Below are positions 37,965-50,097 of a stretch of DNA of 57,005 nucleotides, in pieces (the first letter of the stretch is position 1; every line of letters begins with the position of its first letter). Source of the stretch: an uncultured virus (IMG/VR IMGVR_UViG_3300042452_000440) (Duplodnaviria; Heunggongvirae; Uroviricota; Caudoviricetes); the IMG/VR virus record IMGVR_UViG_3300042452_000440; one strand, given 5' to 3'. Under the pieces are notes generated by a model. The model searched no databases. It was not told where the DNA came from and was given only the letters and a program-made list of their open reading frames with translations. The position numbers were made by a program, and so were the translations under genes.

Positions 37965-38192
37965 TTAAGAAACCAAGAAAAGTTGGGTTAACTTTGATAT
38001 TTCGGTAATACCAAAGAATGCTATCAGAAACAGCACATCCCAAAGTTTAAGTTTGATTGCAAAAGGAATACCAAGTAGTCCTCCGATAAACTTAATGATT
38101 AAACCGTTTTTAAAATCTCCCCATAACATGATTTGATAACCAAGTAAGAGGAGAAAGTTCCCAAGATACCTTAGGATACTTATTTTAGACAT
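37965..38192 (-). CDS. Small membrane protein
   Basis: 75 aa with three hydrophobic segments. Confidence 0.6.
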   Translation of the reverse strand: MSKISILRYLGNFLLLLGYQIMLWGDFKNGLIIKFIGGLLGIPFAIKLKLWDVLFLIAFFGITEISKLTQLFLVS

Positions 38193-38218
38193 AAGGGGTT
38201 TGCTCCCGACCAGTGCTT

Positions 38219-38470
38219 TTAAAGACTCTCCGTGTCTTCATCATCTCTAACATAACAAGGAACTCTGTCTGGATCTAACCATTTCGCATACTCAATATCC
38301 TCCATTGCAGTAGAACATTGTAGAACATTATCAAAAAGATAAATGTCATTCCAGCGTTTGGTATAATAATTTTGCTTTTGCAAACGATAATCGGGTTTAC
38401 CGTTTATCTCAAGAATACCCGCTTCAATAAAGCGGTATCCTTCACGTTCCAGAAGAACTTTGGTTTTCAT
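38219..38470 (-). CDS. Conserved cyanophage-type hypothetical protein
   Basis: GILEINGKPDYRLQK...YLFDN..QC..AMED.EYAKWL. Confidence 0.7.
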   Translation of the reverse strand: MKTKVLLEREGYRFIEAGILEINGKPDYRLQKQNYYTKRWNDIYLFDNVLQCSTAMEDIEYAKWLDPDRVPCYVRDDEDTESL

Positions 38471-38471
38471 A

Positions 38472-38603
38472 TCAATTCAAGTAGATATAATCTGGATGTT
38501 GCACTTTAAATGAATTAACTTGCTCTTCATTTTTAAAAAACTTACGAAGAACAGTATTTTGATGTTCTTTGAACAGATACTTTACTTCAATTAGTTTTTC
38601 CAT
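38472..38603 (-). CDS. Small hypothetical protein (43 aa)
   Basis: Hand-translated MEKLIEVKYLFKEHQ...HPDYIYLN; fills the gap, TGATG-coupled. Confidence 0.5.
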   Translation of the reverse strand: MEKLIEVKYLFKEHQNTVLRKFFKNEEQVNSFKVQHPDYIYLN

Positions 38604-38818
38604 CACGCAACCTCAATAGATTCAAGATCTTGATCGATGTACTCCATAAGCATTTCGTAATCATCAAGGGGGTCACCAGAAAATACGACGCCTTCGTTTT
38701 CATAAAAGCGACGAACCTTTTTATAAAGTTTCGGATTCTTTACATCAAGGTAGATTTCCCCGTTAGCAGCAAGACGAAGAGTGCTAACATCTTTCTTGAA
38801 TTTTTGGATCAGAGACAT
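38603..38818 (-). CDS. Hypothetical protein (71 aa)
   Basis: MSLIQKFKKDV...; start trimmed to lie downstream of the 38841-38869 promoter. Confidence 0.7.
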   Translation of the reverse strand: MSLIQKFKKDVSTLRLAANGEIYLDVKNPKLYKKVRRFYENEGVVFSGDPLDDYEMLMEYIDQDLESIEVA

Positions 38819-38840
38819 TGTTTTGTTTGTTGACCTAGTT

Positions 38841-38891
38841 ATTATAAGGTGTTTAGACTTGTGTGTCAAGTGTGCCAGTGAAGTAACTGGC
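38841..38891 (-). promoter_or_regulatory. Consensus sigma70 early promoter with upstream inverted-repeat motif
   Basis: TTGACA (38864-38869)-N17-TATAAT (38841-38846), preceded by GCCAGTTACTTCACTGGCAC. Confidence 0.85.
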
Positions 38892-38894
38892 GAG

Positions 38895-38969
38895 TCGGGG
38901 TGACAGAATTCGAATCTGCGACTTCCGCTTCCCAAAAGCGGCGCTCTATCCAAGCTGAGCTACACCCCG
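38895..38969 (-). tRNA. tRNA-Pro(TGG)
   Basis: Cloverleaf CGGGGTG...CCGCT-TTTGGGA-AGCGG...CACCCCGA. Confidence 0.92.
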
Positions 38970-39009
38970 TTGCGTTGAGTAGTCTTGCTTCTCAACAGAA
39001 CTAATTATA

Positions 39010-39162
39010 CTACTTCTTGTACCCTTTGTCAAATGGTGCCCAGTGCTGCCAGTTGTATTTATGAATTGCCCAGATACCCATAATAGGAAGCACAATCAAA
39101 ATATATCCAAGAAATCCAAGAGTATAGGGGTTTTCAAGAACCCATCGTGCAAAGTGTCCCAT
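39010..39162 (-). CDS. Small membrane protein (50 aa)
   Basis: Hand-translated MGHFARWVLENPYTLGFLGYILIVLPIMGIWAIHKYNWQHWAPFDKGYKK. Confidence 0.55.
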   Translation of the reverse strand: MGHFARWVLENPYTLGFLGYILIVLPIMGIWAIHKYNWQHWAPFDKGYKK

Positions 39163-39383
39163 CAATATCCCCTCCAAGTTTTAAATTCATAATAAAAATA
39201 TTGATCCAGTATCCTATCATCCAATGGGGCATTTTCAGTTCTATGAGCCCATACCTCACAGAATTCTAAGATACGACGATCGTGTAATGAACTATGCCCC
39301 CACATTCTTACAAATGCCGATACTGCAAAGTGATACCGCTGTCTAATGTGCGGTTCCGTTTCCTTTATACTTTTCGGTATCAT
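39162..39383 (-). CDS. Hypothetical protein
   Basis: ORF track 73 aa; 5' end overlaps the ndhP-like gene, so start is uncertain. Confidence 0.5.
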   Translation of the reverse strand: MIPKSIKETEPHIRQRYHFAVSAFVRMWGHSSLHDRRILEFCEVWAHRTENAPLDDRILDQYFYYEFKTWRGY

Positions 39384-39465
39384 AATACCCTCCTTTTGTT
39401 CCGAAATAAAGAGTTGTTAATACGAAAGGAATTGAAACAAATAAAAGTGCTTTTGCTAATAACAT
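39343..39465 (-). CDS. ndhP: NdhP-like small subunit of photosynthetic NDH-1L (40 aa)
   Basis: MLLAKALLFVSIPFVLTTLYFGTKGGYYDTEKYKGNGTAH: one TM helix plus the FGT+xG(F/Y)YDTxxYxGNG(S/T)AH NdhP C-terminal signature. Confidence 0.82.
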   Translation of the reverse strand: MLLAKALLFVSIPFVLTTLYFGTKGGYYDTEKYKGNGTAH

Positions 39466-39965
39466 CATACCATCTCCATTGCTCTTGAAAGTTCAATATA
39501 GTGATTGATTTCATCCACTGCGATTTCACCTATTCTGGCGTCTTCTGGATGATCCCAGAAGTAGTTTAGATAGGTTTCTGTGGCGTGATACTCAATACCT
39601 GCATTCAGGTGATAAGCAGAGACAGGAGCAATAAAATAATAACCCACCAAAATCCAATAATAGACGAGAACCAAGTGATAAGCAATAAAACGGTCATGCC
39701 AACGGTCGGCACCACCACGCCTTTCCATTTCGATGAGATGTTCGGTTTCATTGAGTGTCTGTGCAAAGTGTTCTTTCATTAAGTAGTAGTGTGATAAATC
39801 TCTGAGTCCTAATGATTCTTTAAGATGCAGCACACTCACGAAAGCAAAGTATGGTGCTCTGGCAATTGTTTCCAAAACCCAGAATCTTTGTATGGGTAAG
39901 TCACGATACAGAAAGTCAATGATTGATATCGTGACTAGCAGGATTGTATCGTTGAACTTTTTCAT
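39465..39965 (-). CDS. ptox: Plastoquinol terminal oxidase (alternative oxidase family)
   Basis: RFWVLETIARAPYFAF.SVLH..ESLG, NETEHL, E.HA.ETY, DEINH di-iron ligands. Confidence 0.92.
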   Translation of the reverse strand: MKKFNDTILLVTISIIDFLYRDLPIQRFWVLETIARAPYFAFVSVLHLKESLGLRDLSHYYLMKEHFAQTLNETEHLIEMERRGGADRWHDRFIAYHLVLVYYWILVGYYFIAPVSAYHLNAGIEYHATETYLNYFWDHPEDARIGEIAVDEINHYIELSRAMEMV

Positions 39966-40129
39966 AAAAATACGCCTGGTTTGTAATCTACTAACTTTCG
40001 AATCTCATCCAGAAGTGCTCCATACTCTTTAAATTTTCTGTCACCAGCGATAAAATGTCTTTGCCTTGTCCAGACTGCATCTGCTAAAAGTTTCAGTTCG
40101 TATTCTGATAATCCGTTAAATCTTTCCAT
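39962..40129 (-). CDS. Small hypothetical protein (55 aa)
   Basis: Hand-translated MERFNGLSEYELKLLADAVW...; AGGAG RBS; ATGA-coupled to PTOX. Confidence 0.6.
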   Translation of the reverse strand: MERFNGLSEYELKLLADAVWTRQRHFIAGDRKFKEYGALLDEIRKLVDYKPGVFL

Positions 40130-40140
40130 TTAATAACTCC

Positions 40141-41184
40141 TTATCTTACGTGATGACCACCGAACATATAACGCATTCCATTTAAGATTTTTGCTCCGAA
40201 GGATCCGAGATTGCGTGAGTTAAATCTTTCAAATAGTGCAGTAGTAATGACAGGAGCGGGAACCCCCAGATCCACAGCGGCAGAAACAGTCCAACGACCC
40301 TCACCACTGTCGGATACGCCGCCAGAGAACTGTTTAAGCTCACCATCCCTGCGTAACACATCAGCAGTAAGATCGAGTAACCAAGACCCAACCACGCTAC
40401 CACGACGCCATAACTCAGCCACCTCAGCAACATCAATATCATAACAATAACTTTCGGGGTCTGCCATTGGGGCAACCTCTGCATCTCCTTCTCTGACATA
40501 CTTGGCACCTGCATTGGCGTTTTTAATAATGTTAAATCCTTCTGCATATGCCTGCATTATTCCATACTCAATTCCATTATGAACCATTTTAACAAAGTGC
40601 CCTGCGCCTGGACCACCACAATGCAACCAACCAAACTCAGCAGAAGTTACGTCTGAGTTAAATTGAGTCCTGGTGGCAGCACCGATTCCTGGTGCGAGGG
40701 CATCAAAAATGCTTGCACAAGTGGCGACTGCAGTATTTCCACCTCCAACCATAAGACAGTATCCACGATCCAAGCCATAAACACCACCGCTAGTGCCGCA
40801 ATCAATATATTGGATACCCAACTTTGCAAGACGCTCTGCTCTTTTCCGACTGTCTTTAAAATTGCTATTGCCATGATCAATAATAATATCTCCTTCGTCA
40901 CAATATCGTAGTAACTCATTAATCGTCTCCTCTACTGTTTCTGCTGGTACAACCATCATAAAGATGCCTGGTCCATATTTGTCTGATACTCCACTCTGAG
41001 TATGTTTTACTACTTGAGCAAGGCTTTGTATAGAAGTTGTAATACCATTAACATATCCGTTTTCGTATGCTTCGTTTGCTTTTTCATAATTTCTTCGATA
41101 CCCCCAAACTTCTATTCCTGCTTTCATCATACGGCGAGACATGCCCTCACCCATTCTTCCCAAACCAATTAATCCTACTTTCAT
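40141..41184 (-). CDS. gnd: 6-phosphogluconate dehydrogenase (decarboxylating, short form)
   Basis: GLIGLGRMG, DCGTSGG, GAGHFVKMVHNGIEYG, DSGEGRW, FGGH. Confidence 0.96.
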   Translation of the reverse strand: MKVGLIGLGRMGEGMSRRMMKAGIEVWGYRRNYEKANEAYENGYVNGITTSIQSLAQVVKHTQSGVSDKYGPGIFMMVVPAETVEETINELLRYCDEGDIIIDHGNSNFKDSRKRAERLAKLGIQYIDCGTSGGVYGLDRGYCLMVGGGNTAVATCASIFDALAPGIGAATRTQFNSDVTSAEFGWLHCGGPGAGHFVKMVHNGIEYGIMQAYAEGFNIIKNANAGAKYVREGDAEVAPMADPESYCYDIDVAEVAELWRRGSVVGSWLLDLTADVLRRDGELKQFSGGVSDSGEGRWTVSAAVDLGVPAPVITTALFERFNSRNLGSFGAKILNGMRYMFGGHHVR

Positions 41185-41276
41185 ACAACTCCTGGATATG
41201 CGTGTGTAAGTCCCCAATAAATGAATAGTATAATAGAACCAAAAAGTAAAAATGAAGATATAAAAAGATTACTCAT
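41181..41276 (-). CDS. 31-aa single-TM microprotein
   Basis: MSNLFISSFLLFGSIILFIYWGLTHAYPGVV; stop overlaps the gnd ATG (ATGA). Confidence 0.55.
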   Translation of the reverse strand: MSNLFISSFLLFGSIILFIYWGLTHAYPGVV

Positions 41277-41382
41277 CGTCCTCATCCTCATAAGTTGAAG
41301 GTTCTTCAAATAGTTCGTCTATTTTCTGTTGTAAAACTCTCCTTTGGAGTTCTTGCAAATCTTTTTCTGTAATTATCCCCAT
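41269..41382 (-). CDS. Small acidic protein (37 aa)
   Basis: MGIITEKDLQELQRRVLQQKIDELFEEPSTYEDEDDE; TAATG-coupled. Confidence 0.5.
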   Translation of the reverse strand: MGIITEKDLQELQRRVLQQKIDELFEEPSTYEDEDDE

Positions 41383-41588
41383 TAGTTTAAAGTAATTTTA
41401 AGAAATGGAAGTAACGGGGGAATAACCCCAATCAACCTTAAAAGTCCCTCAGCAAATAAAGCAAGAACCACCCAACCGACGCACATACTAATGATAGAAG
41501 CATTACGGTTGTGTCGTCGTATTGCAGCATCGATCATCTCCTGCACTTCTGTGCGAGTTACATAATCATCGTCAAATGGTTCCATCAT
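41382..41588 (-). CDS. Small membrane protein
   Basis: EVQEMIDAAIRRHNRNASIISMCVGW plus TM segment. Confidence 0.65.
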   Translation of the reverse strand: MMEPFDDDYVTRTEVQEMIDAAIRRHNRNASIISMCVGWVVLALFAEGLLRLIGVIPPLLPFLKITLN

Positions 41589-41734
41589 TTCTCATCTCCA
41601 AGAAACTTTGCCAGAGGATCTCTTCTGGTTTTAACGATTTCTACTGCTCTCTTATAGAACATATTATCGGTGTTCCCAGAAGATTCAAAAGTCTCCTTGA
41701 TCTTCACCCAATTGTCATAGGTGTGCTGATCCAT
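41585..41734 (-). CDS. Small hypothetical protein (49 aa)
   Basis: Hand-translated MDQHTYDNWVKIKETFESSGNTDNMFYKRAVEIVKTRRDPLAKFLGDEK. Confidence 0.6.
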   Translation of the reverse strand: MDQHTYDNWVKIKETFESSGNTDNMFYKRAVEIVKTRRDPLAKFLGDEK

Positions 41735-41846
41735 AGGGTTTTAGGTTGAATACTACTAGTTATTCTAGTAAGTACTTTTACTATGTCAAGTTTGTGTTGA
41801 TACAAAAATATAGATTAAGAAAATCTAAAATTTGTAATATTTGTAA

Positions 41847-41930
41847 CGGAAGCGGTTGGATTCGAACCAACGGTGCTATTAACACGCTTGTTTTCAAGAC
41901 AAGTTCCTTAAACCACTCGGACACGCTTCC
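41847..41930 (-). tRNA. tRNA-Ser(TGA)
   Basis: Type II cloverleaf; CTTGT-CTTGAAA-ACAAG. Confidence 0.93.
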
Positions 41931-41941
41931 AATAAAAGTCC

Positions 41942-42199
41942 TTAACGGACTTCAAAATCTAAACGTCTTACTTTACGTTGTCTCCTTGCCTCCTGAAAGG
42001 CAAGATCTTCATTAGTCAGAACACCAGGTTTTGATTTGTGTCCATAAGAGTTTAACATAACAACAGCAGATAAGTCAACTGCCGAAATCTTATCACCACG
42101 AATGGATGCCATATTAGGGCAACCACAAGACACAGTTTTCGTAGGATGCCCTTCTAACTCCCTACCACAGGAGCGGCATCTAATTCTTAAATTTTCCAT
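41942..42199 (-). CDS. Putative Zn-binding hypothetical protein
   Basis: CRSC...CGCPN. Confidence 0.7.
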   Translation of the reverse strand: MENLRIRCRSCGRELEGHPTKTVSCGCPNMASIRGDKISAVDLSAVVMLNSYGHKSKPGVLTNEDLAFQEARRQRKVRRLDFEVR

Positions 42200-42215
42200 C
42201 TCTATAATAAGTTAA

Positions 42216-42653
42216 TTATTTTTCAGTAAATGAGCGAAGCATCCAAACGAACTTACCGTGTGCTTCATTTAAATCATCAAGAAGATTGATCGTTCCTCTT
42301 GACTTCTGTTCCTCTGCTTCAGTAGCAGCATTGGAAAGCATAGTAATTATTTTTTGATGACCATCCATCAAATCACGAATCATTTCCATTTCGGAAATAT
42401 TAGATTTTGCTTCACCAACACCAGAAACCTCTATTACCCTTGACAATGAACTAACTGGTTTTGCACCAAGATACCTCATATGCTCAGAAACACGATCAAC
42501 TTCCTCTTGAATAGCAAGATATTGCTCACCAAATAAGTCGTGAATCTGCTTAAAGTCAGGCCCAACAATGTGCCAATGATAAACCCAAGTTTTCTGAAAT
42601 AAGACAAAAAGACTTGCCTGAGTGTCAGAAAGTAACTTATATAATTTTTCCAT
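42216..42653 (-). CDS. dps: Dps-family ferritin-like protein
   Basis: HWHIVGPDFKQIHDLF...D.VSE..R...H.KFVWML. Confidence 0.9.
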   Translation of the reverse strand: MEKLYKLLSDTQASLFVLFQKTWVYHWHIVGPDFKQIHDLFGEQYLAIQEEVDRVSEHMRYLGAKPVSSLSRVIEVSGVGEAKSNISEMEMIRDLMDGHQKIITMLSNAATEAEEQKSRGTINLLDDLNEAHGKFVWMLRSFTEK

Positions 42654-42670
42654 TATACCAGTTTTTTAGG

Positions 42671-42678
42671 TATTTATA
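42671..42678 (-). promoter_or_regulatory. T4-type late promoter TATAAATA for dps
   Basis: Exact motif 18 nt upstream of the dps ATG. Confidence 0.75.
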
Positions 42679-42680
42679 AG

Positions 42681-42752
42681 TGGGCAATATCGGATTCGAA
42701 CCAATGACCGTCTGCGTGTAAAGCAGCTGCGCTACCGCTGCGCCAATCGCCC
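42681..42752 (-). tRNA. tRNA-Val(TAC)
   Basis: GGGCGAT...CTGC-TTTACAC-GCAG...ATTGCCCA; lies outside the main array. Confidence 0.9.
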
Positions 42753-42760
42753 ATAAAAAG

Positions 42761-42925
42761 TCAATACTGACTCATAAGATATTCTACTGTATTTGCTACA
42801 TCATTCATAGCATCTCGTAGATCTGTTTGCTGCCCTGACTCTTGCTTAATAATCGGACGATGATCATCAGTTAGAGTCCAACGCCATTGATCCATATCCT
42901 TACAGAACCAGAGATTAATTTTCAT
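42761..42925 (-). CDS. Small hypothetical protein (54 aa)
   Basis: Hand-translated MKINLWFCKDMDQWRWTL...QESGQ..DLRDAMNDVANTVEY. Confidence 0.6.
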   Translation of the reverse strand: MKINLWFCKDMDQWRWTLTDDHRPIIKQESGQQTDLRDAMNDVANTVEYLMSQY

Positions 42926-43073
42926 TCTTAAAATACTCCAATTCTATCCAGCGAAGAAGTGTGTTATAGGCATAGATTGATGCTTCTGTACAGTTGTCTT
43001 CTTTAAGTCTCTGGATATAATACTCAAGTGCCTCAATAACCATTTGACGGTCCATCTGGGAAATAAGAGACAT
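42915..43073 (-). CDS. Small hypothetical protein (52 aa)
   Basis: Hand-translated MSLISQMDRQMVIEALEYY...; AGGAGG RBS. Confidence 0.6.
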   Translation of the reverse strand: MSLISQMDRQMVIEALEYYIQRLKEDNCTEASIYAYNTLLRWIELEYFKNEN

Positions 43074-43102
43074 AACCCTCCTAACTCGTTATCTATAATA
43101 CA

Positions 43103-43492
43103 CTAAAAAGGGGGTTTTGTCAACTCCCCCTCTTCTTGTTTGTTTTTGTTGACTTGTTTAGCACTCCAAACAATGATAGATATGAGCGCAAAGTAAAACA
43201 GATAGTCGTCAATCATAACCAAAAAGAAAATAACTGAACCACCTATTCTCAAATAATCTGGCATTGGAATCTTGTTACAGACCCAACGAACTTGTTTTTC
43301 AAAGATAAAGTATAGTGGTATGAGTGCAGTGACTACAAACTCACTATACGGAATCACAAAATATAGAGAGAGCAATATAAAGATTGGGAAGTATTGCCTC
43401 TCTGGTATCCTCTTTAGATATGAAACATATAGATCAATCCATCCCTGACGGGTTTTTGGTCTTTTTTTCCAACGCTTGATCAATTGCTTCAT
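43103..43492 (-). CDS. Membrane protein
   Basis: 129 aa with several hydrophobic segments. Confidence 0.6.
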   Translation of the reverse strand: MKQLIKRWKKRPKTRQGWIDLYVSYLKRIPERQYFPIFILLSLYFVIPYSEFVVTALIPLYFIFEKQVRWVCNKIPMPDYLRIGGSVIFFLVMIDDYLFYFALISIIVWSAKQVNKNKQEEGELTKPPF

Positions 43493-43516
43493 ATTTAAAA
43501 ATTAATACTATCTATA

Positions 43517-44494
43517 TCACTTCTCACCCATACCGATTTGTTGAACCTTGATACGGGATTTATTCAAAATAGAACCAGCAAGAGGAACATAACCAAGATC
43601 ATCAGCAAGTGATTGTGCCTTAGAACTTAGAGCATAGTTGATAGCATCACGAACTGCGGTTGCCTTACCAGGAGCATAACCACTCTTATAGGCAATAATC
43701 CAGGTCAGAGTGGAGATAGGATATGCCTGAGCACCTGCGGGGTTAGGATCTTCACCAGCAAGGGTCACGGGGTCCAATTTGATGCCATTCAGAGCAGCGG
43801 CACCAGTTACAGCAGAAGGTCCAACGAACTTACCTGCCTTGTTTTGGAGAACTGCTGCTTGAAGTTTGTTGGGACGAACAAATCCAGTGTTCACATAACC
43901 AATGGCACCAGGAGTGTTCTTGATCGTGCCAGAGACACCTTCATTACCCTTAGCACCAACACCAGTAGGCCAGTTTACGGACTTACCCACACCAGGAGCC
44001 CAACCACCAAAAGCATCCAGAGAGTTGGTGAACGCATAAGTAGTTCCAGAACCATCAGAACGATGAACAACCATCATCTTACCAGCAGTACAACCGACTT
44101 GTTTCCAGTCCTTAATACGACCAGAAAAAATATCAACGGTTTGTTTCTGAGTTAGTTTCAGTTTGCAACCAGGTTTGTTATAGGCAATAGCAATCGTTCC
44201 ACCCACCATAGGAATCTGAACGACACCACGCTTTACTTTCTTTGCTTCAGATGACTTAATGGGTTCATCAGAGGCACCGAAATCTACGGTTCCAGCAACA
44301 AATTGACGAATACCAGCACCAGAACCAACGGACTGATAGTTCACACGGTTACCAGAAGATGTGGAGTAATCCTGGAACCAACGTTGATAGATGGGTGCGG
44401 GGAACGTAGCACCAGCACCATTAATAGCAGGTCCAGCAAGTGCAGAAGTAGGTGCAAGAGCAAGACCAATTGTAGCAATGTGTTTGAGTTTCAT
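43517..44494 (-). CDS. pstS: Phosphate ABC transporter substrate-binding protein
   Basis: Signal peptide; GAGATFPAPIY, YQSVGSGAG, DFGASD, HRSDGSGTT, YPI. Confidence 0.97.
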   Translation of the reverse strand: MKLKHIATIGLALAPTSALAGPAINGAGATFPAPIYQRWFQDYSTSSGNRVNYQSVGSGAGIRQFVAGTVDFGASDEPIKSSEAKKVKRGVVQIPMVGGTIAIAYNKPGCKLKLTQKQTVDIFSGRIKDWKQVGCTAGKMMVVHRSDGSGTTYAFTNSLDAFGGWAPGVGKSVNWPTGVGAKGNEGVSGTIKNTPGAIGYVNTGFVRPNKLQAAVLQNKAGKFVGPSAVTGAAALNGIKLDPVTLAGEDPNPAGAQAYPISTLTWIIAYKSGYAPGKATAVRDAINYALSSKAQSLADDLGYVPLAGSILNKSRIKVQQIGMGEK

Positions 44495-44516
44495 AAAAAT
44501 TAAAAACTTCTTTGTA

Positions 44517-44549
44517 ATTGTACTTGATTGAGTTTAAGAGAAAGTTAAA
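44517..44549 (-). promoter_or_regulatory. Putative pho box and -10 upstream of pstS
   Basis: TTTAACTT-TCT-CTTAAACT (11-bp period; cyanobacterial YTTAAYYW consensus), 8 nt above TACAAT. Confidence 0.6.
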
Positions 44550-44563
44550 TGTCACCAAACACC

Positions 44564-44588
44564 AAAAAACCTCCCCGAAAGGAGGTTT
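44564..44588 (-). terminator. Terminator after porin
   Basis: AAACCTCC-TTTCGG-GGAGGTTT plus T-tract. Confidence 0.8.
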
Positions 44589-44606
44589 AGAGGTATCAGG
44601 ATTCTA

Positions 44607-46085
44607 TCAGAAACGGAAGGTCGTCTGAATCACACCACCATAGTTAGAAGATGCGTTCTTAAATGCCTGATTATTAGAAACATAGAAGATTGCAGGAGTC
44701 ACGCTGATGTTATCGCTAACCTTGTAACGATAGAAGGCTTCCCACATCAGAGCGTCTTTGGTCAGCGTAGGTGCGTTGCCAGGTTGACCGATGGCAAAAC
44801 CAGAGGCATTACCCTTAGCAAACACATCACTCCACTGAACACCAGCCATCCAAGTTTGGGAGTTGGTAGCAGCATTAGGAGTTGCAGGACCACTCACATA
44901 GTTCCAACCATAAGCGGCAGAGACCGAAGGAATGATGCCAGACTTCTTAGGTTGCCAGTAAGCATTCAGAGCATAACCGTTAGAGGTTTGGTTAGCGGCA
45001 AGAGTACCACCATTACCAGCAACACCATTGAAGGTACGAACACGAGTGCCTTCCGTACCATTACGATAACCGAAAGCAATACCGTATTGAGGAGCACGAT
45101 AACCAACTTGTGCCAGAGTATTCAGAGCACCAGAGGCATCAAATTCACCTTTGGTAGAATCAGAACCGTTCTGAGCAACATAGTTCAAGTTAGCAACGAA
45201 ACCTTTCTTACCCGCTTGTGCCCACTGAGCACCGAAACCAGAACCAGTTGCCTTGTTATAGACACCAGGAGCACCAGCAACAGCAAAGAAGTCAAGAACA
45301 TCCGACTTGTATGCAGTAGGAATCCATGCCATCTCAGTGTTACGAACCAGAGCACCAGCAGTCAGGGTTACGCCCTTAGCAAGTGCGGGGAAGCTGTAGT
45401 ACAGACGGTCAAGATTGACTTGGTTTGCATAAGATTCTGCCTTATCCAGTTTGAACAGAGAAGAGGAAGAACCGAAAGGTTGCGAAGAGAAGTTACCAGA
45501 ACGCAGACGAGTGCGAAGCAGATCCTTACCAGTGAAGGAAGTATCAAAGTTCAGACGAAGATCGTAGTTGAATGCGGTGTTACCAACGTTGGTTCCGTTA
45601 GCAAGACGAGCACCTTCTACACCACCAAGAACGAAGGTTGCTTCACCTTTCAGTTTGGTAGTAGTAGAAAACTGAGTTGCTTGAAGTTGACCAACTTGTG
45701 CTTCCAGTTTATCAACACGACCACGAATAACAGCAAGTTCTTCACGGAACTCAGTAGCAAGACGTTGAAGTTCATCAGTAACTTCGGTTACACGATCAAG
45801 GCAAGCATTCAGAAGTGCAGCTGCCTCATAACGAGTCATTGCCTTACCACCACCATAGGTGCCGTTAGGATAACCAGCAACACAACCATAACGCTCAACA
45901 AGATTATTGAGTGCCTGATATGCCCAATCAGTAGGTTGAACATCAGACAGTTGAGTGATACTTGAAACCTGTTCCGAAGTGGAATATTGGTTGACTGCTA
46001 CCATATTCAGATCTGCGGCATTCGCAGTAACAGGAGCAACCATTCCCAGAGCAACAGGTGCAAGCATCAGTTGTTTGAGTTTCAT
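44607..46085 (-). CDS. Cyanobacterial outer-membrane porin (SomA/OprB-type with SLH domain)
   Basis: SDVQPTDWAYQAL..LVERYGCVAGYP...TRYEAAALLNACL, FSTTTKL.G, terminal TTFRF. Confidence 0.93.
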   Translation of the reverse strand: MKLKQLMLAPVALGMVAPVTANAADLNMVAVNQYSTSEQVSSITQLSDVQPTDWAYQALNNLVERYGCVAGYPNGTYGGGKAMTRYEAAALLNACLDRVTEVTDELQRLATEFREELAVIRGRVDKLEAQVGQLQATQFSTTTKLKGEATFVLGGVEGARLANGTNVGNTAFNYDLRLNFDTSFTGKDLLRTRLRSGNFSSQPFGSSSSLFKLDKAESYANQVNLDRLYYSFPALAKGVTLTAGALVRNTEMAWIPTAYKSDVLDFFAVAGAPGVYNKATGSGFGAQWAQAGKKGFVANLNYVAQNGSDSTKGEFDASGALNTLAQVGYRAPQYGIAFGYRNGTEGTRVRTFNGVAGNGGTLAANQTSNGYALNAYWQPKKSGIIPSVSAAYGWNYVSGPATPNAATNSQTWMAGVQWSDVFAKGNASGFAIGQPGNAPTLTKDALMWEAFYRYKVSDNISVTPAIFYVSNNQAFKNASSNYGGVIQTTFRF

Positions 46086-46155
46086 AAAAATTTGTTTTTA
46101 GTACTAAACGACATAGTGAAAATCGTGCAAGTAGTTGCGGCACGATTGATCACGG

Positions 46156-46189
46156 TATTTATCTTAACATTTTCTTTGGGATCAGTCAA
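46156..46189 (-). promoter_or_regulatory. Porin promoter TTGACT-N17-TAAGAT overlapping late-like GATAAATA
   Basis: -35 46184-46189, -10 46161-46166. Confidence 0.6.
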
Positions 46190-46206
46190 GTTTTTTGGTT
46201 TTCATA

Positions 46207-46278
46207 AGCGGAAGACGAGATTCGAACTCGCAACAACCTGCTTGGAAGGCAGGGACTCTACCGTTGAGTTACTTCCGC
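46207..46278 (-). tRNA. tRNA-Gly(TCC)
   Basis: CCTGC-CTTCCAA-GCAGG. Confidence 0.93.
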
Positions 46279-46280
46279 AA

Positions 46281-46334
46281 TGGTGGGGATTTACCCAGCC
46301 TCAGAGTTTCCTCTTCACAGGCACGGAACCCCAC
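46281..46334 (-). ncRNA. Unknown small RNA with kink-turn and CCA-ended stem
   Basis: GTGGGG...GCC-TGT-GA-AGAG-GAAA-CTCT-GA-GGC...CCCCACCA. Confidence 0.45.
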
Positions 46335-46360
46335 GCACTTCACTTCACACGGACTTGTAA

Positions 46361-46389
46361 AGTATATGACATAATGATCATTATGTCAA
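46361..46389 (-). promoter_or_regulatory. Sigma70 promoter TTGACA-N17-TATACT containing a perfect 22-bp palindrome
   Basis: TGACATAATGATCATTATGTCA at 46367-46388. Confidence 0.7.
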
Positions 46390-46390
46390 G

Positions 46391-46463
46391 AGCCCCCGAC
46401 AAGACTTGAACTTGCGACAACCGCTTTACAAAAGCGGTGCTCTACCAGCTGAGCTACAAGGGC
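46391..46463 (-). tRNA. tRNA-Thr(TGT)
   Basis: CCGCT-TTTGTAA-AGCGG. Confidence 0.93.
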
Positions 46464-46466
46464 GAA

Positions 46467-46674
46467 TGGGTATCGAGTGCCCGACACCCGCAGAAGACAC
46501 TTTCTGCGATTTTCACTGCATTAGAGGGCAGTGATAAAAGAAAACACCAAACCTTATTTTTCCTGTTCTCAGGAAGGCACCCAAATGGGGTGGGAGACCT
46601 TGCAAGGGTTTATACCTCCAAAGTTTGTCCAGCGTTTTCAATTTGAAAGAATCGGACATTTCCAATCCTTTCAA
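46467..46674 (-). ncRNA. ~200-nt multi-helix structured RNA of unknown family
   Basis: At least seven hand-identified helices, several with G-U pairs, filling the Asn-Thr spacer. Confidence 0.5.
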
Positions 46675-46747
46675 CTGGGGCGGCAGGGATCGAACCTGCG
46701 ACCTAGATGTTAACAGCATCCCGCTACTACCGCTGAGCTACACCCCA
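46675..46747 (-). tRNA. tRNA-Asn(GTT)
   Basis: GGATG-CTGTTAA-CATCT. Confidence 0.92.
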
Positions 46748-46812
46748 ATATTTGTTTTTATGTGTAAGGGAAAGGAGAGCTCTTGGACGGAACCGCAGGA
46801 TCACTTTCCCAG

Positions 46813-46883
46813 TGGAGAATAGCAGAATCGAACTGCTAATAAGTGCTTGCAAAGCACCCGTTATACCGTTTAACTAATTCCCC
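46813..46883 (-). tRNA. tRNA-Ala(TGC)
   Basis: GGTGC-TTTGCAA-GCACT; G3-U70 identity pair. Confidence 0.92.
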
Positions 46884-46890
46884 AAATTGG

Positions 46891-46962
46891 AGGCGGGGGG
46901 TGGAGTTGAACCACCTACCTGAAGCTTATGAGACTTCTGTGCAACCGTTACACTTCCCCACG
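46891..46962 (-). tRNA. tRNA with CAT anticodon (Met or Ile2), atypical
   Basis: GAAGT-CTCATAA-GCTTC; C1xC72 mismatch, A8, encoded CCA. Confidence 0.75.
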
Positions 46963-47026
46963 ATGATGGATTGAGTGTGATACATCTCATAAGGATGTAA
47001 CAGGGACTCAACCTCCAACAATTTAT

Positions 47027-47055
47027 ATAGTAACAAACTTTTGCAAGTTTGTCAA
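47027..47055 (-). promoter_or_regulatory. Internal sigma70 promoter TTGACA-N17-TACTAT in the tRNA array
   Basis: -35 47050-47055, -10 47027-47032. Confidence 0.7.
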
Positions 47056-47056
47056 G

Positions 47057-47130
47057 CGTCCTTTGAGAGATTCGAACTCCCGACACATAGGTTCGTAGCC
47101 TACTGCTCTATTCCACTGAGCTAAAAGGAC
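47057..47130 (-). tRNA. tRNA-Arg(ACG)
   Basis: GTAGG-CTACGAA-CCTAT. Confidence 0.93.
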
Positions 47131-47133
47131 AGG

Positions 47134-47205
47134 CGAAGGGTGAGGGATTTGAACCCCCATCGCAAGGTTTTGGAGACCTGCATCTTACCATTAGACCAAC
47201 CCAAC
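47134..47205 (-). tRNA. tRNA-Trp(CCA)
   Basis: AGGT-CTCCAAA-ACCT; two U-U mismatches in the acceptor stem. Confidence 0.8.
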
Positions 47206-47209
47206 AAGG

Positions 47210-47282
47210 TGTCCGTGAGAGGATTCGAACCTCCAACAAATAGATCCTTAGTCTATTGCCTCTTCCATTGGGCTACACGGAC
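47210..47282 (-). tRNA. tRNA-Leu(AAG), short variable arm
   Basis: ATAGA-CTAAGGA-TCTAT; G37, A73. Confidence 0.82.
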
Positions 47283-47285
47283 TGG

Positions 47286-47356
47286 TTGAGAAACTAGGAC
47301 TCGAACCTAGATAAACTCCTTCAAAGGGAGGTGTCCTGCCATTAGACGATTTCTCA
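47286..47356 (-). tRNA. tRNA-Gln(TTG)
   Basis: CTCC-CTTTGAA-GGAG; U1-A72; encoded CCA. Confidence 0.88.
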
Positions 47357-47361
47357 ATAGG

Positions 47362-47437
47362 AGTTCAGGGTGGGATTTGAACCCACGGTGAAAGAAGTTT
47401 TGCAGACTTCTGCATTCGACCACTCTGCCACCTGAAC
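47362..47437 (-). tRNA. tRNA-Cys(GCA)
   Basis: GAAGT-CTGCAAA-ACTTC; U73. Confidence 0.92.
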
Positions 47438-47439
47438 GG

Positions 47440-47511
47440 GGTGACGTATGGGAATCGAACCCATCTACCCAGATTCACAATCTGGTTCCTTATCCGCTAG
47501 GATAACGTCAC
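47440..47511 (-). tRNA. tRNA-His(GTG)
   Basis: CCAGA-TTGTGAA-TCTGG; C73. Confidence 0.9.
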
Positions 47512-47512
47512 A

Positions 47513-47586
47513 TAGCAGTAGGTGGATTTGAACCACCGTCCATAGGAATATGAGTCCCGTACTCTACCAGACTGAGCTATACTGCT
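47513..47586 (-). tRNA. tRNA-Met(CAT)
   Basis: GGGA-CTCATAT-TCCT; initiator vs elongator not resolved. Confidence 0.85.
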
Positions 47587-47590
47587 GAGG

Positions 47591-47673
47591 CGGAAGATGT
47601 TGGATTCGAACCAACGGAGGTTTTACCCTCACGGTTTAGCAAACCGCTGCATTAACCACTCTGCCAATCTTCC
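47591..47673 (-). tRNA. tRNA-Ser(GCT)
   Basis: Type II; GCGGT-TTGCTAA-ACCGT. Confidence 0.93.
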
Positions 47674-47787
47674 ATAAAGAAGGATAGTCAGTCCTCCTAC
47701 CTTTATTCTCCTTGTCGAAATACTTGTCTCTACGGATTGACTAGATCCTAAAACTTTCTTCCTCAGATGGATTAAGGTTCACCAGAG

Positions 47788-47859
47788 TGGAACCGACAAG
47801 ATTTGAACTTGTGACCGCTCGGTTATCAGCCGAGTGCTCTACCACTGAGCTACGGTTCC
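47788..47859 (-). tRNA. tRNA-Ile(GAT)
   Basis: CTCGG-CTGATAA-CCGAG. Confidence 0.95.
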
Positions 47860-47971
47860 AAAACTGGGTGAAAGGTCATTTGCTCTTTGCCCTTTCCATT
47901 CCACATTCAGAAGATTGCGTTTGCAACCACTTTCTTCCTATACCCAGTAAGTTTGAGAGTAAAACTCTCAA

Positions 47972-48045
47972 TGGGAACAATCGGATTTGAACCGATAACA
48001 CCTTGATCTTCAATCAAGTGCTCTACCAATTGGAGCTATGTTCCC
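47972..48045 (-). tRNA. tRNA-Phe(GAA)
   Basis: CTTGA-TTGAAGA-TCAAG. Confidence 0.93.
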
Positions 48046-48048
48046 AAG

Positions 48049-48120
48049 TCCAGAAGGTTGGATTTGAACCAACGTCCTCACCGCCCCAAACGGTGCCGTC
48101 TACCGCTGACTTACTCCTGG
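48049..48120 (-). tRNA. tRNA-Pro(TGG), second copy
   Basis: CACCG-TTTGGGG-CGGTG. Confidence 0.9.
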
Positions 48121-48124
48121 ATGG

Positions 48125-48196
48125 TAGTCTCGAAGGGATTTGAACCCTCGTTTTTGCTGTGAAAGAGCAACGTCCTAACCATTAGACGACGAGACC
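48125..48196 (-). tRNA. tRNA-Glu(TTC)
   Basis: TTGCT-CTTTCAC-AGCAA; encoded CCA. Confidence 0.92.
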
Positions 48197-48392
48197 AGAT
48201 GGGAGGGGTATCCCACACGAAGTTACTTACGGATTACGCTTCGTAGCCTTATGAATCCTGCCATCATCCGATGGTGGTTAGAAATCCCTCCCCAATTCCA
48301 GTTCTTGCTACGTCATTCCTTACCTAACTGGCAACATTCAGGATGACGTGCTACAACCGCCAAGGAGGGACACTCCATCGGCAGCGTAGCAA

Positions 48393-48465
48393 CGACCCTA
48401 ACGGGATTCGAACCCGTGATACCACCGTGACAGGGTAGCGTGATAGACCACTTCACTATAGGGTC
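48393..48465 (-). tRNA. tRNA-Asp(GTC)
   Basis: CTACC-CTGTCAC-GGTGG. Confidence 0.93.
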
Positions 48466-48469
48466 AAGG

Positions 48470-48560
48470 TGGGAGAGGAGGGAATTGAACCCCCGATGGT
48501 TCCGATGTAACGGTTTTACAGACCGCAGCCACACATATTGCCAACAGTAGCCACTCTCCC
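48470..48560 (-). tRNA. tRNA-Tyr(GTA) with enlarged D-arm
   Basis: GCGGT-CTGTAAA-ACCGT; long variable arm. Confidence 0.85.
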
Positions 48561-48563
48561 AAA

Positions 48564-48636
48564 TGGGTCTGGTCGGACTCGAACCGACGACTTACAGGTT
48601 AAAAGCCCGCTACTCTACCAACTGAGTTACAGACCC
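48564..48636 (-). tRNA. tRNA-Lys(TTT), first gene of the array
   Basis: GCGGG-CTTTTAA-CCTGT. Confidence 0.93.
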
Positions 48637-48660
48637 ACATAATATAGGATAAATATTCAG

Positions 48661-48696
48661 TTGTCTAGGTTCTCGGTGAGGGGTGATCCCTCAACC
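48661..48696 (-). promoter_or_regulatory. Putative boxB-boxA (rrn-type) antitermination element
   Basis: TGAGGG-ATCAC-CCCTCA hairpin followed by GAACCTAGACAA, close to cyanobacterial rrn boxA GAACCTTGAAAA. Confidence 0.5.
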
Positions 48697-48704
48697 ACTT
48701 GATT

Positions 48705-48761
48705 AGAATACCACCGTTTGGTCTCTGGGGGGAGATTGGTGGACGCTTAGGAAACTGTCAC
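48705..48761 (-). promoter_or_regulatory. Putative early promoter of the tRNA array
   Basis: GTGACAGTT-TCCT-AAGCGTCCAC inverted-repeat motif and extended -10 TGGTATTCT. Confidence 0.45.
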
Positions 48762-48768
48762 AGGCAAC

Positions 48769-48803
48769 AAAAAAGGGGAGGAAACTTTTGGTTTCTCTCC
48801 CCT
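48769..48803 (-). terminator. Intrinsic terminator (attenuator) between the leader ORF and the tRNA array
   Basis: GGGGAG-A-GAAAC-CAAAA-GTTTC-CTCCCC-TTTTTT. Confidence 0.85.
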
Positions 48804-48829
48804 GTCTTTTTGCTTTTATGGATTACATC

Positions 48830-48931
48830 TTACATATGTCTATCCATATCCGCAAACAGGGGAGCACCCTCAATATGCCAATAGCGGCAATCGAGATTAC
48901 TAAACTGTTTTGTGGGCATCGGGAAAGACAT
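48830..48931 (-). CDS. 33-aa leader peptide of a putative tRNA-sensing attenuator
   Basis: MSFPMPTKQFSNLDCRYWHIEGAPLFADMDRHM*; residues 5-23 are 19 different amino acids; overlaps the antiterminator arm. Confidence 0.8.
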   Translation of the reverse strand: MSFPMPTKQFSNLDCRYWHIEGAPLFADMDRHM

Positions 48932-48952
48932 TGTTTTCGACCTAAGTATGTT

Positions 48953-48983
48953 TATTTATAAGACTTTTATTTTAAAAAGTCAA
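48953..48983 (-). promoter_or_regulatory. Composite promoter of the leader: TTGACT-N17-TATAAA overlapping T4 late TATAAATA
   Basis: -35 48978-48983; TATAAATA 48953-48960; 22 nt above the leader ATG. Confidence 0.75.
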
Positions 48984-49057
48984 CGGGTTAGGTAGGATTC
49001 GAACCTACGACTCACGCTTTAGAAGAGCGTTACTCTATTCCACTGAGTTACTAACCC
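48984..49057 (-). tRNA. tRNA-Arg(TCT)
   Basis: ACGCT-CTTCTAA-AGCGT. Confidence 0.93.
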
Positions 49058-49071
49058 CTGTGAACCCTCAT

Positions 49072-49100
49072 ATTATAAGGTATGAGGAGAACCTTGTCAA
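49072..49100 (-). promoter_or_regulatory. Consensus sigma70 promoter for tRNA-Arg(TCT)
   Basis: TTGACA (49095-49100)-N17-TATAAT (49072-49077). Confidence 0.85.
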
Positions 49101-49103
49101 CCC

Positions 49104-49697
49104 TCAACCAAGATAAACATTGAAAGAGATAGAAATTCTATCTTCCATACTTTCATTTGCTTCCACATAATGCCACAAATATCCTGGCATCAAATATAAA
49201 CGTCCTTGCTTTGGTTCAAGATTAAGTTCTAACAAGTCAGAACGTCCATCATACAAATTACAATATTGTGACCCATCATTTCTTAAAATCACAAAGTTAC
49301 CAGAGTCTTCTGGAACAGAAACATAATAAATGCCAATCAGATCTGCACGACCGTGAGAATGCATTACATTATAGTTATAAGACTTATTAACATTTACCCA
49401 AAAGGAAAGTTCTCCAACATCAGATCGTAAGTTCTTTGAGATAAGAGTATCTTGTGCGAATACTTTTGCAGCGCCAATCAAAGTAGTTAATTGATTAAAT
49501 TGCTCGTACTCAAATGACTTCTCAGTAGTAAAACTGGGAGAATGATATCCATTACGATTTGAATTATCAGTATTTTCAAAAAAATCTTTAACCTGATAAC
49601 ATTCTTGGTTTAATATCTCTAAATCAATATTTGGTGAACAAGAACTAATAAAACTTGGAAAAATATCAGCATTAAAAGTTTGATTATAAAGATTCAT
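49104..49697 (-). CDS. Putative 2OG-Fe(II) oxygenase (TIGR02466-like)
   Basis: WVNVN...YNVMHSH..GIYYVSVP..SG...P.YLWHYVE.N...RISISFN. Confidence 0.82.
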   Translation of the reverse strand: MNLYNQTFNADIFPSFISSCSPNIDLEILNQECYQVKDFFENTDNSNRNGYHSPSFTTEKSFEYEQFNQLTTLIGAAKVFAQDTLISKNLRSDVGELSFWVNVNKSYNYNVMHSHGRADLIGIYYVSVPEDSGNFVILRNDGSQYCNLYDGRSDLLELNLEPKQGRLYLMPGYLWHYVEANESMEDRISISFNVYLG

Positions 49698-50097
49698 TTG
49701 AGACACAATCTTCCACCCATACTGCACAAATTCTCATTTCACCGCCTAGTAGTTTTTGCGCTTCACTACCGTCTGGTTCTTTTTCAATATACTTTGGTTT
49801 ATATTTTTGATTTGCTTCTCCGATTATTCTATCATATTCGGGAGAAACTTGCTTAATCGCCCTATCAACGTCTCTTTCTACTCTACGATTTACTTTATCA
49901 GGATCTTGAATAAGAATCTCATTGAGAATAGTTTGTGGAAAATACTTTCTTTGAACCTCATCCAATAAGTCCCAAAGTTTATTTTCCGATACTCCTGTGC
50001 ATTGTGAGAGTGATGCAATGAGAGTGGATAATACAATACTCAGTATTATAAGTTGCTTTTTATCGGGTTTCTTTTTACCAAAGTTAAAATTAATCAT
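49684..50097 (-). CDS. Hypothetical membrane-anchored protein
   Basis: N-terminal TM segment; LWDLLDEVQR; CAVWVEDC end. Confidence 0.65.
   Translation of the reverse strand: MINFNFGKKKPDKKQLIILSIVLSTLIASLSQCTGVSENKLWDLLDEVQRKYFPQTILNEILIQDPDKVNRRVERDVDRAIKQVSPEYDRIIGEANQKYKPKYIEKEPDGSEAQKLLGGEMRICAVWVEDCVSNESL

Follow-up and report, generated by a model that had tools for sequence, protein, structure and literature searches.

Organization and distribution of the leader

The window analyzed here is the whole 57,005-nucleotide (nt) stretch of DNA in IMG/VR virus record IMGVR_UViG_3300042452_000440, which, judging from its sequence, belongs to an uncultured virus related to Synechococcus phage S-PM2 (Kyanoviridae). 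On the minus strand, between tRNA-Arg(tct) and a block of tRNA genes, lies a short leader. A sequence-only reading of this DNA had described it as a promoter, a 33-codon open reading frame (ORF), an intrinsic terminator and 20 tRNAs, and all of these were recovered at the positions given in Table 1. Comparison with related viruses moderately favors the interpretation that the leader is a ribosome-dependent (leader-peptide) transcription attenuator heading the phage tRNA array.

The nearest match in a cultured phage is S-PM2, which has 75% nt identity across this region and contains the leader between tRNA-Arg and tRNA-Lys, with an ORF (MSNISKQIEIIMESDCRYWHIAQSLLLANKDKRM) that differs from that of the window by in-frame insertions or deletions. 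The family is larger than these two members: a 20-mer from the core of the ORF matched 108 viral contigs, and a peptide-pattern search matched 159. More diverged leaders were found in S-CREM1 (MNTAFIKEDIKFSDYRWYIVETPLCDKSVKLM, annotated as hypothetical protein SCREM1_59) and in contig L228 (MTNLHSQPKSDYPMNRWFIGETLLVANMVSQS), and in the S-PM2 records the leader ORF is unannotated. A start (ATG) and an in-frame stop were present in 108 of 111 copies, the other three having no in-frame ATG or running off the fetched stretch. The position of the leader is also conserved, as tRNA-Lys(ttt) follows on the same strand in 66 of the 68 loci with flanking sequence, at a median of 187 nt past the stop codon, and the tRNA located about 52 nt upstream of the leader ATG is tRNA-Arg(tct) in 41 of these loci and tRNA-Ala(tgc) in 17. 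The related 69-kb fragment G001 contains a single, identical leader.

Table 1. Features of the leader locus and the tRNA array in the window
Feature	Position	Strand	Basis or remark
Putative sigma70-type promoter, TTGACA-17-TATAAT	49072..49100	-	12/12 consensus matches; precedes tRNA-Arg(tct)
tRNA-Arg(tct), upstream neighbor of the leader	48984..49057	-	ARAGORN and Rfam tRNA calls
Leader promoter: T4-type late motif TATAAATA (48960-48953) and sigma70-like TTGACT-17-TATAAA (48983-48955)	48953..48983	-	Sequence
Weak Shine-Dalgarno-like UAGGU	48940..48944	-	8 nt ahead of AUG
Leader ORF, 33 codons, MSFPMPTKQFSNLDCRYWHIEGAPLFADMDRHM; stop TAA 48832-48830	48830..48931	-	Frame conserved wherever the copy is complete
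Segment 1, the start codon with codons 1-9; partner segment 2	48905..48934	-	Folds, alignment
Central hairpin in codons 11-23 (DCRYWHI); conserved stem and variable loop	48863..48901	-	Alignment
Segment 2, codons 23-33; alternative partners segment 1 or segment 3	48833..48864	-	Folds, alignment
Segment 3, from just past the stop codon to the G-run; alternative partners segment 2 (antiterminator) or segment 4 (terminator)	48797..48829	-	
Intrinsic terminator: 5' arm 48803-48791, loop 48790-48786, 3' arm 48785-48775, T6 48774-48769	48769..48803	-	
Hairpin CCACC...GGUGG, then invariant TATTCT (TGGTATTCT); possible extended -10	48705..48742	-	Promoter reading is an interpretation
Hairpin 48696-48675 and boxA-like GAACCTAGACAA 48672-48661; adjoins tRNA-Lys	48661..48696	-	
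tRNA array headed by tRNA-Lys(ttt) (48637-48563)	46207..48637	-	19 tRNAs by ARAGORN, 1 by Rfam only
Putative sigma70-like promoter, TTGACA-17-TACTAT	47027..47055	-	Inside tRNA array
Putative sigma70-like promoter, TTGACA-17-TATACT	46361..46389	-	Inside tRNA array

Three alternative helices are conserved in five lineages

The leader RNA can form three helices, between segments 1 and 2 (1:2), between segments 2 and 3 (2:3, the antiterminator), and between segments 3 and 4 (3:4, the terminator). Each was more stable than shuffled sequences: the 2:3 helix at -32.6 kcal/mol (z-score -6.7), the 1:2 helix at -35.2 kcal/mol (z -4.3), and the terminator, stem 48803-48775 plus T6, at -22.9 kcal/mol (z -5.8). 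The sequence-only reading had proposed the 2:3 helix of this scheme from the complementarity of CUCCCCUGUUU (48864-48854) with AGACAGGGGAG (48807-48797), which is complete when G-U pairs are included, and from the inner pairs UAUGGAU/AUCCAUA and ACAU/AUGU, which exist and place the UAA stop codon in the apical loop. It had further predicted two mutually exclusive structures, and folding of the window leader bore this out: the full-length RNA folded into the 1:2 helix, the central hairpin, and the terminator (-63.1 kcal/mol), while an RNA cut before the terminator 3' arm folded into the antiterminator (-45.2 kcal/mol). Conservation of the frame and of the antiterminator complementarity among homologs, on which that reading had staked its case, was found in five diverged lineages, where all three helices, with the stop codon in the apical loop of 2:3, were kept with compensatory changes.

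Pairing was scored in an alignment of 80 sequences (79 distinct sequences for the terminator) and compared with controls in which the partners were slid relative to one another; these slide and shuffle controls are not probabilities. In the 2:3 helix 90.1% of the cells were paired, compared with 41-59% for slid partners, and eight pairs had changed on both sides. For the 1:2 helix, the central hairpin and the terminator together, 91.7% were paired, compared with 37-48% for slid partners, and 20 pairs had changed on both sides. Taken separately, helix 1:2 was 88.3% paired (eight pairs with changes on both sides), the terminator 97.2% (seven such pairs), and the helix of the central hairpin 100%.

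Changes in segment 2 were matched by changes in both of its partners. The window has UCUUUCC in segment 1, GGAUAGA in segment 2, and AUCC in segment 3, while L032 and L042 have ACCUACC or ACUUACC, GGUAGGU, and ACC..ACC in the same places. The same change of segment 2 to GGUAGGU and segment 3 to ACC..ACC was found in L032, L042, L147, L157, and L075, and in L009 and L059 GACUUUCC pairs with GGAAAGUC. The outer part of the 2:3 helix is built from different sequences in each of the five lineages (Table 2). Its duplex energy was between -14.2 and -24.5 kcal/mol in all 80 sequences, compared with about -5.5 kcal/mol (standard deviation about 3.3) for random 24-mers from the window. For the 1:2 helix, the fraction of random windows that paired as well was 0.022, 0.041, 0.083, 0.015, and 0.0007 in the five lineages.

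Table 2. Outer 2:3 helix in five lineages, with the fraction of random 24-mers that paired with the terminator arm as well as segment 2 did
Type	Segment 2	Segment 3	Random 24-mers
Window	CUCCCCUGU	ACAGGGGAG	0
S-PM2	CCCUCCU(G)CUUGC	GCAAGGGGAGGG	0
L015	CCCCUG	CAGGGG	0.0033
S-CREM1	CCCCCCUU	AAGGGGGG	0.008
L228	CCCUCUU	AAGAGGG	0

Each sequence was also folded on its own, and 78 of 82 folds were parsed (L011, L041, L046, and L228 were dropped by the parser). The minimum free energy (MFE) structure of the full-length leader contained the terminator in 78 of 78 sequences and the 1:2 helix in 76. When segment 1 was omitted, the outer 2:3 helix appeared in 77 of 78. The stop codon was at an apical loop in all 78, and the distance from the stop codon to the arm was 24-31 nt.

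Constraint on the ORF and on the RNA

The 58 distinct ORFs had lengths of only 96, 99, 102, or 105 nt and ended in TAA, TAG, or TGA. One alternative explanation is that the locus is a stand-alone small late gene, in which the peptide is the product, the terminator ends the unit, and the helices serve mRNA stability or control of the gene's own translation. We consider this unlikely, though it is the strongest of the alternatives. It would fit the invariant late promoter and strong terminator that the locus has of its own, the start codon lying within helix 1:2, and the annotation of the S-CREM1 copy as a protein, and a possible promoter in the downstream spacer would mean that the tRNAs need not depend on the leader. 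The sequence of the ORF also has signs of coding, as the frame is conserved, several codons vary only synonymously (Gly with four codons, Leu CTC/CTT, Thr ACC/ACA, and Tyr TAC/TAT), and the DCRYWHI core and the PLF motif of the peptide are highly conserved.

However, variation was not concentrated at third codon positions, with 29, 27, and 31 variable columns at the first, second, and third positions. The DCRYWHI core is encoded by the central hairpin (UUGCC-loop-GGCAU), and among distinct sequences it varied only by CGC/CGT in the loop and ATT/ATC, a G-U to G-C swap. The core variants found with the peptide search (DMRYWHI, DCRAWHI, DCRDWHI, and DCQYWHI) carry non-conservative replacements (C>M, Y>A, Y>D, and R>Q), yet the hairpin is retained in them with the loop altered or the stem redrawn. 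Toward the ends of the ORF, codons 2-4 co-vary with codons 29-32 as base pairs and the peptide follows (S>T, F>Y, R>G/S, and H>Q/L). In S-CREM1 and L228 the peptides differ at most positions and can barely be aligned, yet both leaders retain the arrangement of three helices and the place of the stop codon. A small gene would also leave the complementarity between segment 2 and the terminator 5' arm in five lineages unexplained, and the peptide has no Pfam or PHROGs family. These patterns of substitution indicate that constraints on RNA and on protein are both visible and that the RNA constraint is dominant. The product is poorly constrained, yet the start, stop, and frame are kept, as expected of a leader peptide.

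A second alternative, also unlikely, is that the locus is a structured non-coding RNA or a factor-dependent switch in which the open frame is tolerated or secondary; it could be a small RNA, an element for processing or insulation that lies between tRNA-Arg and tRNA-Lys, or an attenuator that responds to a protein or another RNA and not to a ribosome. The very strong RNA constraint would be expected in this case: the 20-nt core is identical in 108 contigs with non-loop variation limited to G-U/G-C swaps, the z-scores of the folds range from -4.3 to -6.7, and the Shine-Dalgarno-like motif is weak and missing in some members. A non-coding element does not account for an invariant start codon, for a stop codon (TAA, TAG, or TGA) that occupies the same structural position in 78 of 78 sequences, for length changes that are all multiples of three, or for an ATG...stop frame of 31-34 codons in each of the five diverged lineages. 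An Rfam scan of positions 38000-50000 at E ≤ 1, with the T-box model included, found no match in the leader.

The lack of an Rfam, Pfam, or PHROGs family has no bearing either way on the attenuator reading. In the ESM Atlas the leader peptide matched only unnamed short-protein clusters, with recognition below the useful range, and a tblastn search of the peptide against cultured phages returned S-PM2 only (E 0.7). Public RNA data consisted of seven metatranscriptomes with small shares, and the contigs of four were examined. One 262-nt contig from a relative (run X5) covers 48717-48936, across the terminator; it was not used as support, as such contigs carry no strand, end, or level information and could derive from DNA in the library. 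The S-PM2 records annotate a 118-amino-acid ORF antisense to the leader and overlapping tRNA-Arg (S-PM2d160, L001 2943-3299; S-PM2p162, L002 443-799), which is probably spurious.

A model for attenuation ahead of the tRNA genes

The anatomy of an attenuator is well supported by the comparative evidence. The leader has an ORF lying over segments 1 and 2, a terminator before the genes, a 2:3 antiterminator, and a 1:2 anti-antiterminator. We infer the translation of the ORF, the coupling of ribosome and polymerase, the direction of the response, and the signal that is sensed as further parts of the model. Transcripts would begin either at the TATAAATA/sigma70-like promoter or upstream of it, at the promoter of tRNA-Arg, and would carry the 31-34-codon ORF on an RNA with two folds. 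With no ribosome present, segment 1 would pair with segment 2. Segment 3 would then be available to segment 4, so that the terminator forms and transcription stops ahead of tRNA-Lys. A ribosome held at approximately codons 4-18 would mask segment 1, and the 2:3 antiterminator would then form and polymerase would continue into the tRNA genes. A ribosome at the stop codon would cover the inner 2:3 helix, and the terminator would form again. The net effect would be that slow decoding leads to more phage tRNA transcription and fast decoding to less.

The closest known attenuators are the trp/his-type leaders of enterobacterial amino-acid operons (trpL, hisL, pheL, leuL, and the multivalent thr and ilv leaders). 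Like them, the cyanophage leader has a short ORF ahead of an intrinsic terminator, four segments with mutually exclusive 1:2, 2:3, and 3:4 helices, an ORF overlapping segments 1 and 2, and a default fold that is predicted to terminate. The fifth defining feature is a cluster of regulatory codons for the sensed amino acid or acids, and this was absent: unlike the trp-type leaders, the cyanophage leader does not have a series of codons for one amino acid or for a few, no class of residues is repeated, and 15-20 different residues occur in 31-34 codons. There are other differences. In the cyanophage leader the stop codon is in the apical loop of 2:3 rather than between segments 1 and 2, segments 1 and 2 are separated by an additional central hairpin, the downstream genes encode tRNAs rather than biosynthetic enzymes, and the element is phage-borne, with a T4-type late promoter and a cyanobacterial host.

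In the pyrBI leader of E. coli, attenuation is set by the distance between ribosome and polymerase: pausing of the polymerase depends on UTP, and a ribosome that is close behind blocks the terminator directly. The cyanophage leader would be similar in that formation of the terminator would depend on how a ribosome progresses along an ORF of ordinary composition and not on a lack of one cognate amino acid. It differs from pyrBI in having a conserved antiterminator helix, and in that a slow ribosome would favor read-through. By analogy, its logic appears closer to that of a general sensor of translation rate, for which pyrBI is the nearest example we know. T-box riboswitches are also transcription attenuators that report on tRNA or translation supply, but they bind uncharged tRNA directly and have no leader ORF, whereas the cyanophage leader has an ORF and no match to the Rfam T-box model in the region scanned.

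Several observations weigh against the attenuator reading. Most of the aligned sequences come from close relatives, and shared descent inflates the pair counts. RNAalifold applied to the 80-sequence alignment returned the central hairpin and the terminator but neither of the long-range helices. When the whole leader was folded up to, and ending before, the terminator 3' arm, 2:3 was the MFE structure in just 43 of 78 sequences. With segment 1 omitted and the full terminator present, the terminator conformer was the more stable in 49 of 77, with a median difference of 4.0 kcal/mol, so that read-through would have to depend on the order in which the RNA is synthesized. The sequence-only reading had itself cautioned that the ribosome-binding site is weak, which was borne out: UAGGU is nearly invariant in the alignment but is lost in L032, L042, L059, and L228. 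No amino acid or codon was enriched in the leader peptides, and we know of no demonstration of leader-peptide attenuation in cyanobacteria or for T4-type late transcription. Finally, the tRNAs may not depend on read-through, given TGGTATTCT, the hairpin and boxA-like leader, and the promoters inside the array. The array may have a basal supply on top of which the switch provides late or demand-dependent transcription, without controlling the array as a whole.

The usual view of phage tRNA genes is that they are constitutive cargo, correcting codon bias or substituting for tRNAs cleaved by host defenses. If the attenuator model is correct, the phage measures translation and adjusts its own tRNA supply, and the leader would be the first such attenuator known to us for tRNA genes, for a T4-like late transcript, or for a cyanobacterial system. 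Full-text literature searches, with subscription journals outside their coverage, found no description of such a leader before phage tRNA genes. What appears in many cyanophage genomes as a small hypothetical protein or an unannotated gap would be a regulatory RNA. S-PM2 and S-CREM1 can be cultured, making the leader directly testable.

Diversity of residues in the leader peptide

The central claim of the sequence-only reading was that the leader is a pan-amino-acid attenuator, based on 19 consecutive different amino acids at residues 5-23 (MPTKQFSNLDCRYWHIEGA). The anatomical part of this claim stood, as the frame, the helices, and the position before tRNA-Lys are conserved; the all-different composition as a selected feature was not supported. 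The run is present in the window, with Val alone absent, and its chance per position, 20!/20^19 or about 4.6e-7, agrees with the value of about 5e-7 given originally. No other all-different run in the six frames of the window is as long, the next one reaching 16, and none of 50,000 random 33-mers with the composition of the long ORFs of the window reached a run of 19. However, a per-position chance of 5e-7 is not small over a scan this large, so the run alone is no evidence.

Among relatives the longest all-different run ranged from 12 to 19, and a run of 19 was found in just 4 of 53 distinct peptides. The number of residue types was 20 in 4 of these peptides, 19 in 28, 18 in 16, and 15-17 in 5, compared with an average of 15.15 (standard deviation 1.43) for random 33-mers of phage composition, for which the probability of 19 or more types is 0.006. 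The five lineages had 19, 15, 17, 17, and 19 types, S-PM2 being the one with 15. When residues were shuffled within alignment columns, the number of types was not in excess of the shuffles (p 0.23), and the excess in run length was borderline (p 0.04). The family is unusually diverse in its residues, but these comparisons gave no sign that the diversity itself is maintained, and part of it stems from the RNA-constrained core.

That the run and the complementarity are functionless accidents of one sequence would be in keeping with the lack of conservation of the 19-residue run and with an event of 5e-7 per site being expected many times over a very large scan, but for the element as a whole this very improbable explanation is refuted by its presence in more than 150 contigs and two cultured phages, its compensatory changes, and its fixed synteny, and chance remains the best reading only of the exact 19-residue run.

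A narrower form of the attenuator model, which we regard as doubtful, is that the leader is a general sensor of decoding capacity for the supply of the phage's own tRNAs. Codons 4-18 spell about 14 different amino acids, and a shortage of almost any charged tRNA would stall a ribosome on segment 1 and so allow transcription into the tRNA array; such a shortage could arise when codon usage is mismatched to a GC-rich host, when cells starve late in infection, or when host anticodon nucleases act. The original reading had warned that stalls at the last few codons could occlude the antiterminator, and the geometry suggests the same limit: with a ribosome footprint of about 30 nt, segment 1 would be masked and segment 2 left uncovered only by stalls at approximately codons 4-18. 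Inspection of the phage tRNA genes shows that nearly every amino acid is served, so a comparison of the leader codons with the phage tRNAs cannot discriminate between readings. If the leader were such a sensor, there would be a feedback loop from translation to transcription of tRNA genes, and the residue diversity (18-20 types in 48 of 53 peptides) would be functional rather than accidentally inherited.

Promoters of the leader

At the leader promoter, the late motif overlaps a sigma70-like TTGACT (48983-48978)-17-TATAAA, the sigma70 part being our own reading. The late motif is invariant across the 80 aligned sequences. The window holds four TATAAATA sites, all on the coding strand and 18-80 nt ahead of ORF starts, and TATAAAT is quoted as the T4 late motif for cyanophages in an excerpt of PMC3037559. 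A second TATAAATA at 42671-42678 on the minus strand is directly behind tRNA-Val (42680-42752) and 18 nt ahead of an ORF at 42653-42216; a late promoter right after a tRNA is the same layout as at the leader. Transcripts from the putative promoter at 49100-49072, upstream of tRNA-Arg, would continue into the leader.

In S-CREM1 (L192 790-845) and in L041 and L046, we read a sigma70-like promoter built into the terminator, with the -35 box in the loop and the -10 box just past the U-run (TTGCAA-17-TATGAT in S-CREM1 and TTGACA-17-TATTGT in L041 and L046).

The spacer and the tRNA array

The sequence-only reading had warned that a promoter downstream of the terminator could bypass it. This caveat holds and is now wider, extending from the invariant TGGTATTCT to the boxA-like leader and the two sigma70-like promoters inside the array. 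The spacer between the terminator and tRNA-Lys is 131 nt long (48768-48638). Family-wide, it contains a hairpin ending in the invariant GGTGGTATTCT, a second hairpin, and a 12-mer resembling the cyanobacterial boxA. The first hairpin (48705-48742, minus strand) has the compensatory pair CCACU/AGUGG in relatives, and this hairpin with its invariant end is either an RNA element or an extended -10 promoter after the terminator; as a promoter, the invariant TGGTATTCT could bypass the terminator. Folded as one RNA, the spacer at 48768-48638 was unsupported as a whole (z -0.26). In L016 and L042 the spacer unit (hairpin, GGTGGTATTCT, and second hairpin) is tandemly duplicated between the terminator and tRNA-Lys.

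The boxA of cyanobacterial rRNA spacers is given as GAACCTTGAAAA in an excerpt of PMC8461337. The window element at 48672-48661 matches it at 10 of 12 positions, and the S-PM2 element (GCACCTTGAAAA) at 11 of 12; the consensus is a cyanobacterial one, and that of the host may differ. Other relatives have GCACCTTGACAA or GAACCTCGAAAA in this place, and in others, by eye, ACAT replaces ACCT. At one mismatch or fewer, 15 of 100 shuffles of the window gave at least as many matches. A 17-mer around the site is not specific, as about 15 of the 29 contexts that it matched were unrelated promoters of other viruses. The layout is like that of the cyanobacterial rrn boxB-boxA leaders in that a hairpin and then a boxA-like 12-mer precede the first tRNA of the array. 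It differs in that the boxA-like element is separate from and downstream of the attenuator terminator, in that its match is inexact in the window, and in that its TTGACA-like core can be mistaken for a -35 box. The hairpin and the boxA-like 12-mer may represent an rrn-type antitermination leader for the tRNA array. A candidate tRNA-Lys promoter, TAGACA-17-TATTAT (48667-48639), was rejected: its start would be inside the tRNA, S-PM2 does not have the -10 box, and the -35 box is within the boxA-like element.

The array itself (48637-46207) comprises 20 tRNAs, 19 predicted by ARAGORN and one by Rfam (46962-46891), with three more farther downstream. The array probably consists of several transcription units because two sigma70-like promoters are predicted inside it. 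The tRNA found by Rfam (46891-46962, minus strand, 46.4 bits) was missed by ARAGORN at default settings; lowered stringency gave tRNA-Met(cat) with a mismatched first acceptor pair. The 93-nt tRNA-Arg(gcg) that ARAGORN predicted at 48468-48560 on the minus strand has an anticodon stem of mostly G-U pairs, a very long extra arm, and an encoded CCA. The Rfam tRNA model had no match there, and only a weak tmRNA score (22.5 bits) was obtained. This gene may be a degenerate or unusual tRNA, and in many relatives its slot in the array is occupied by tRNA-Tyr(gta).

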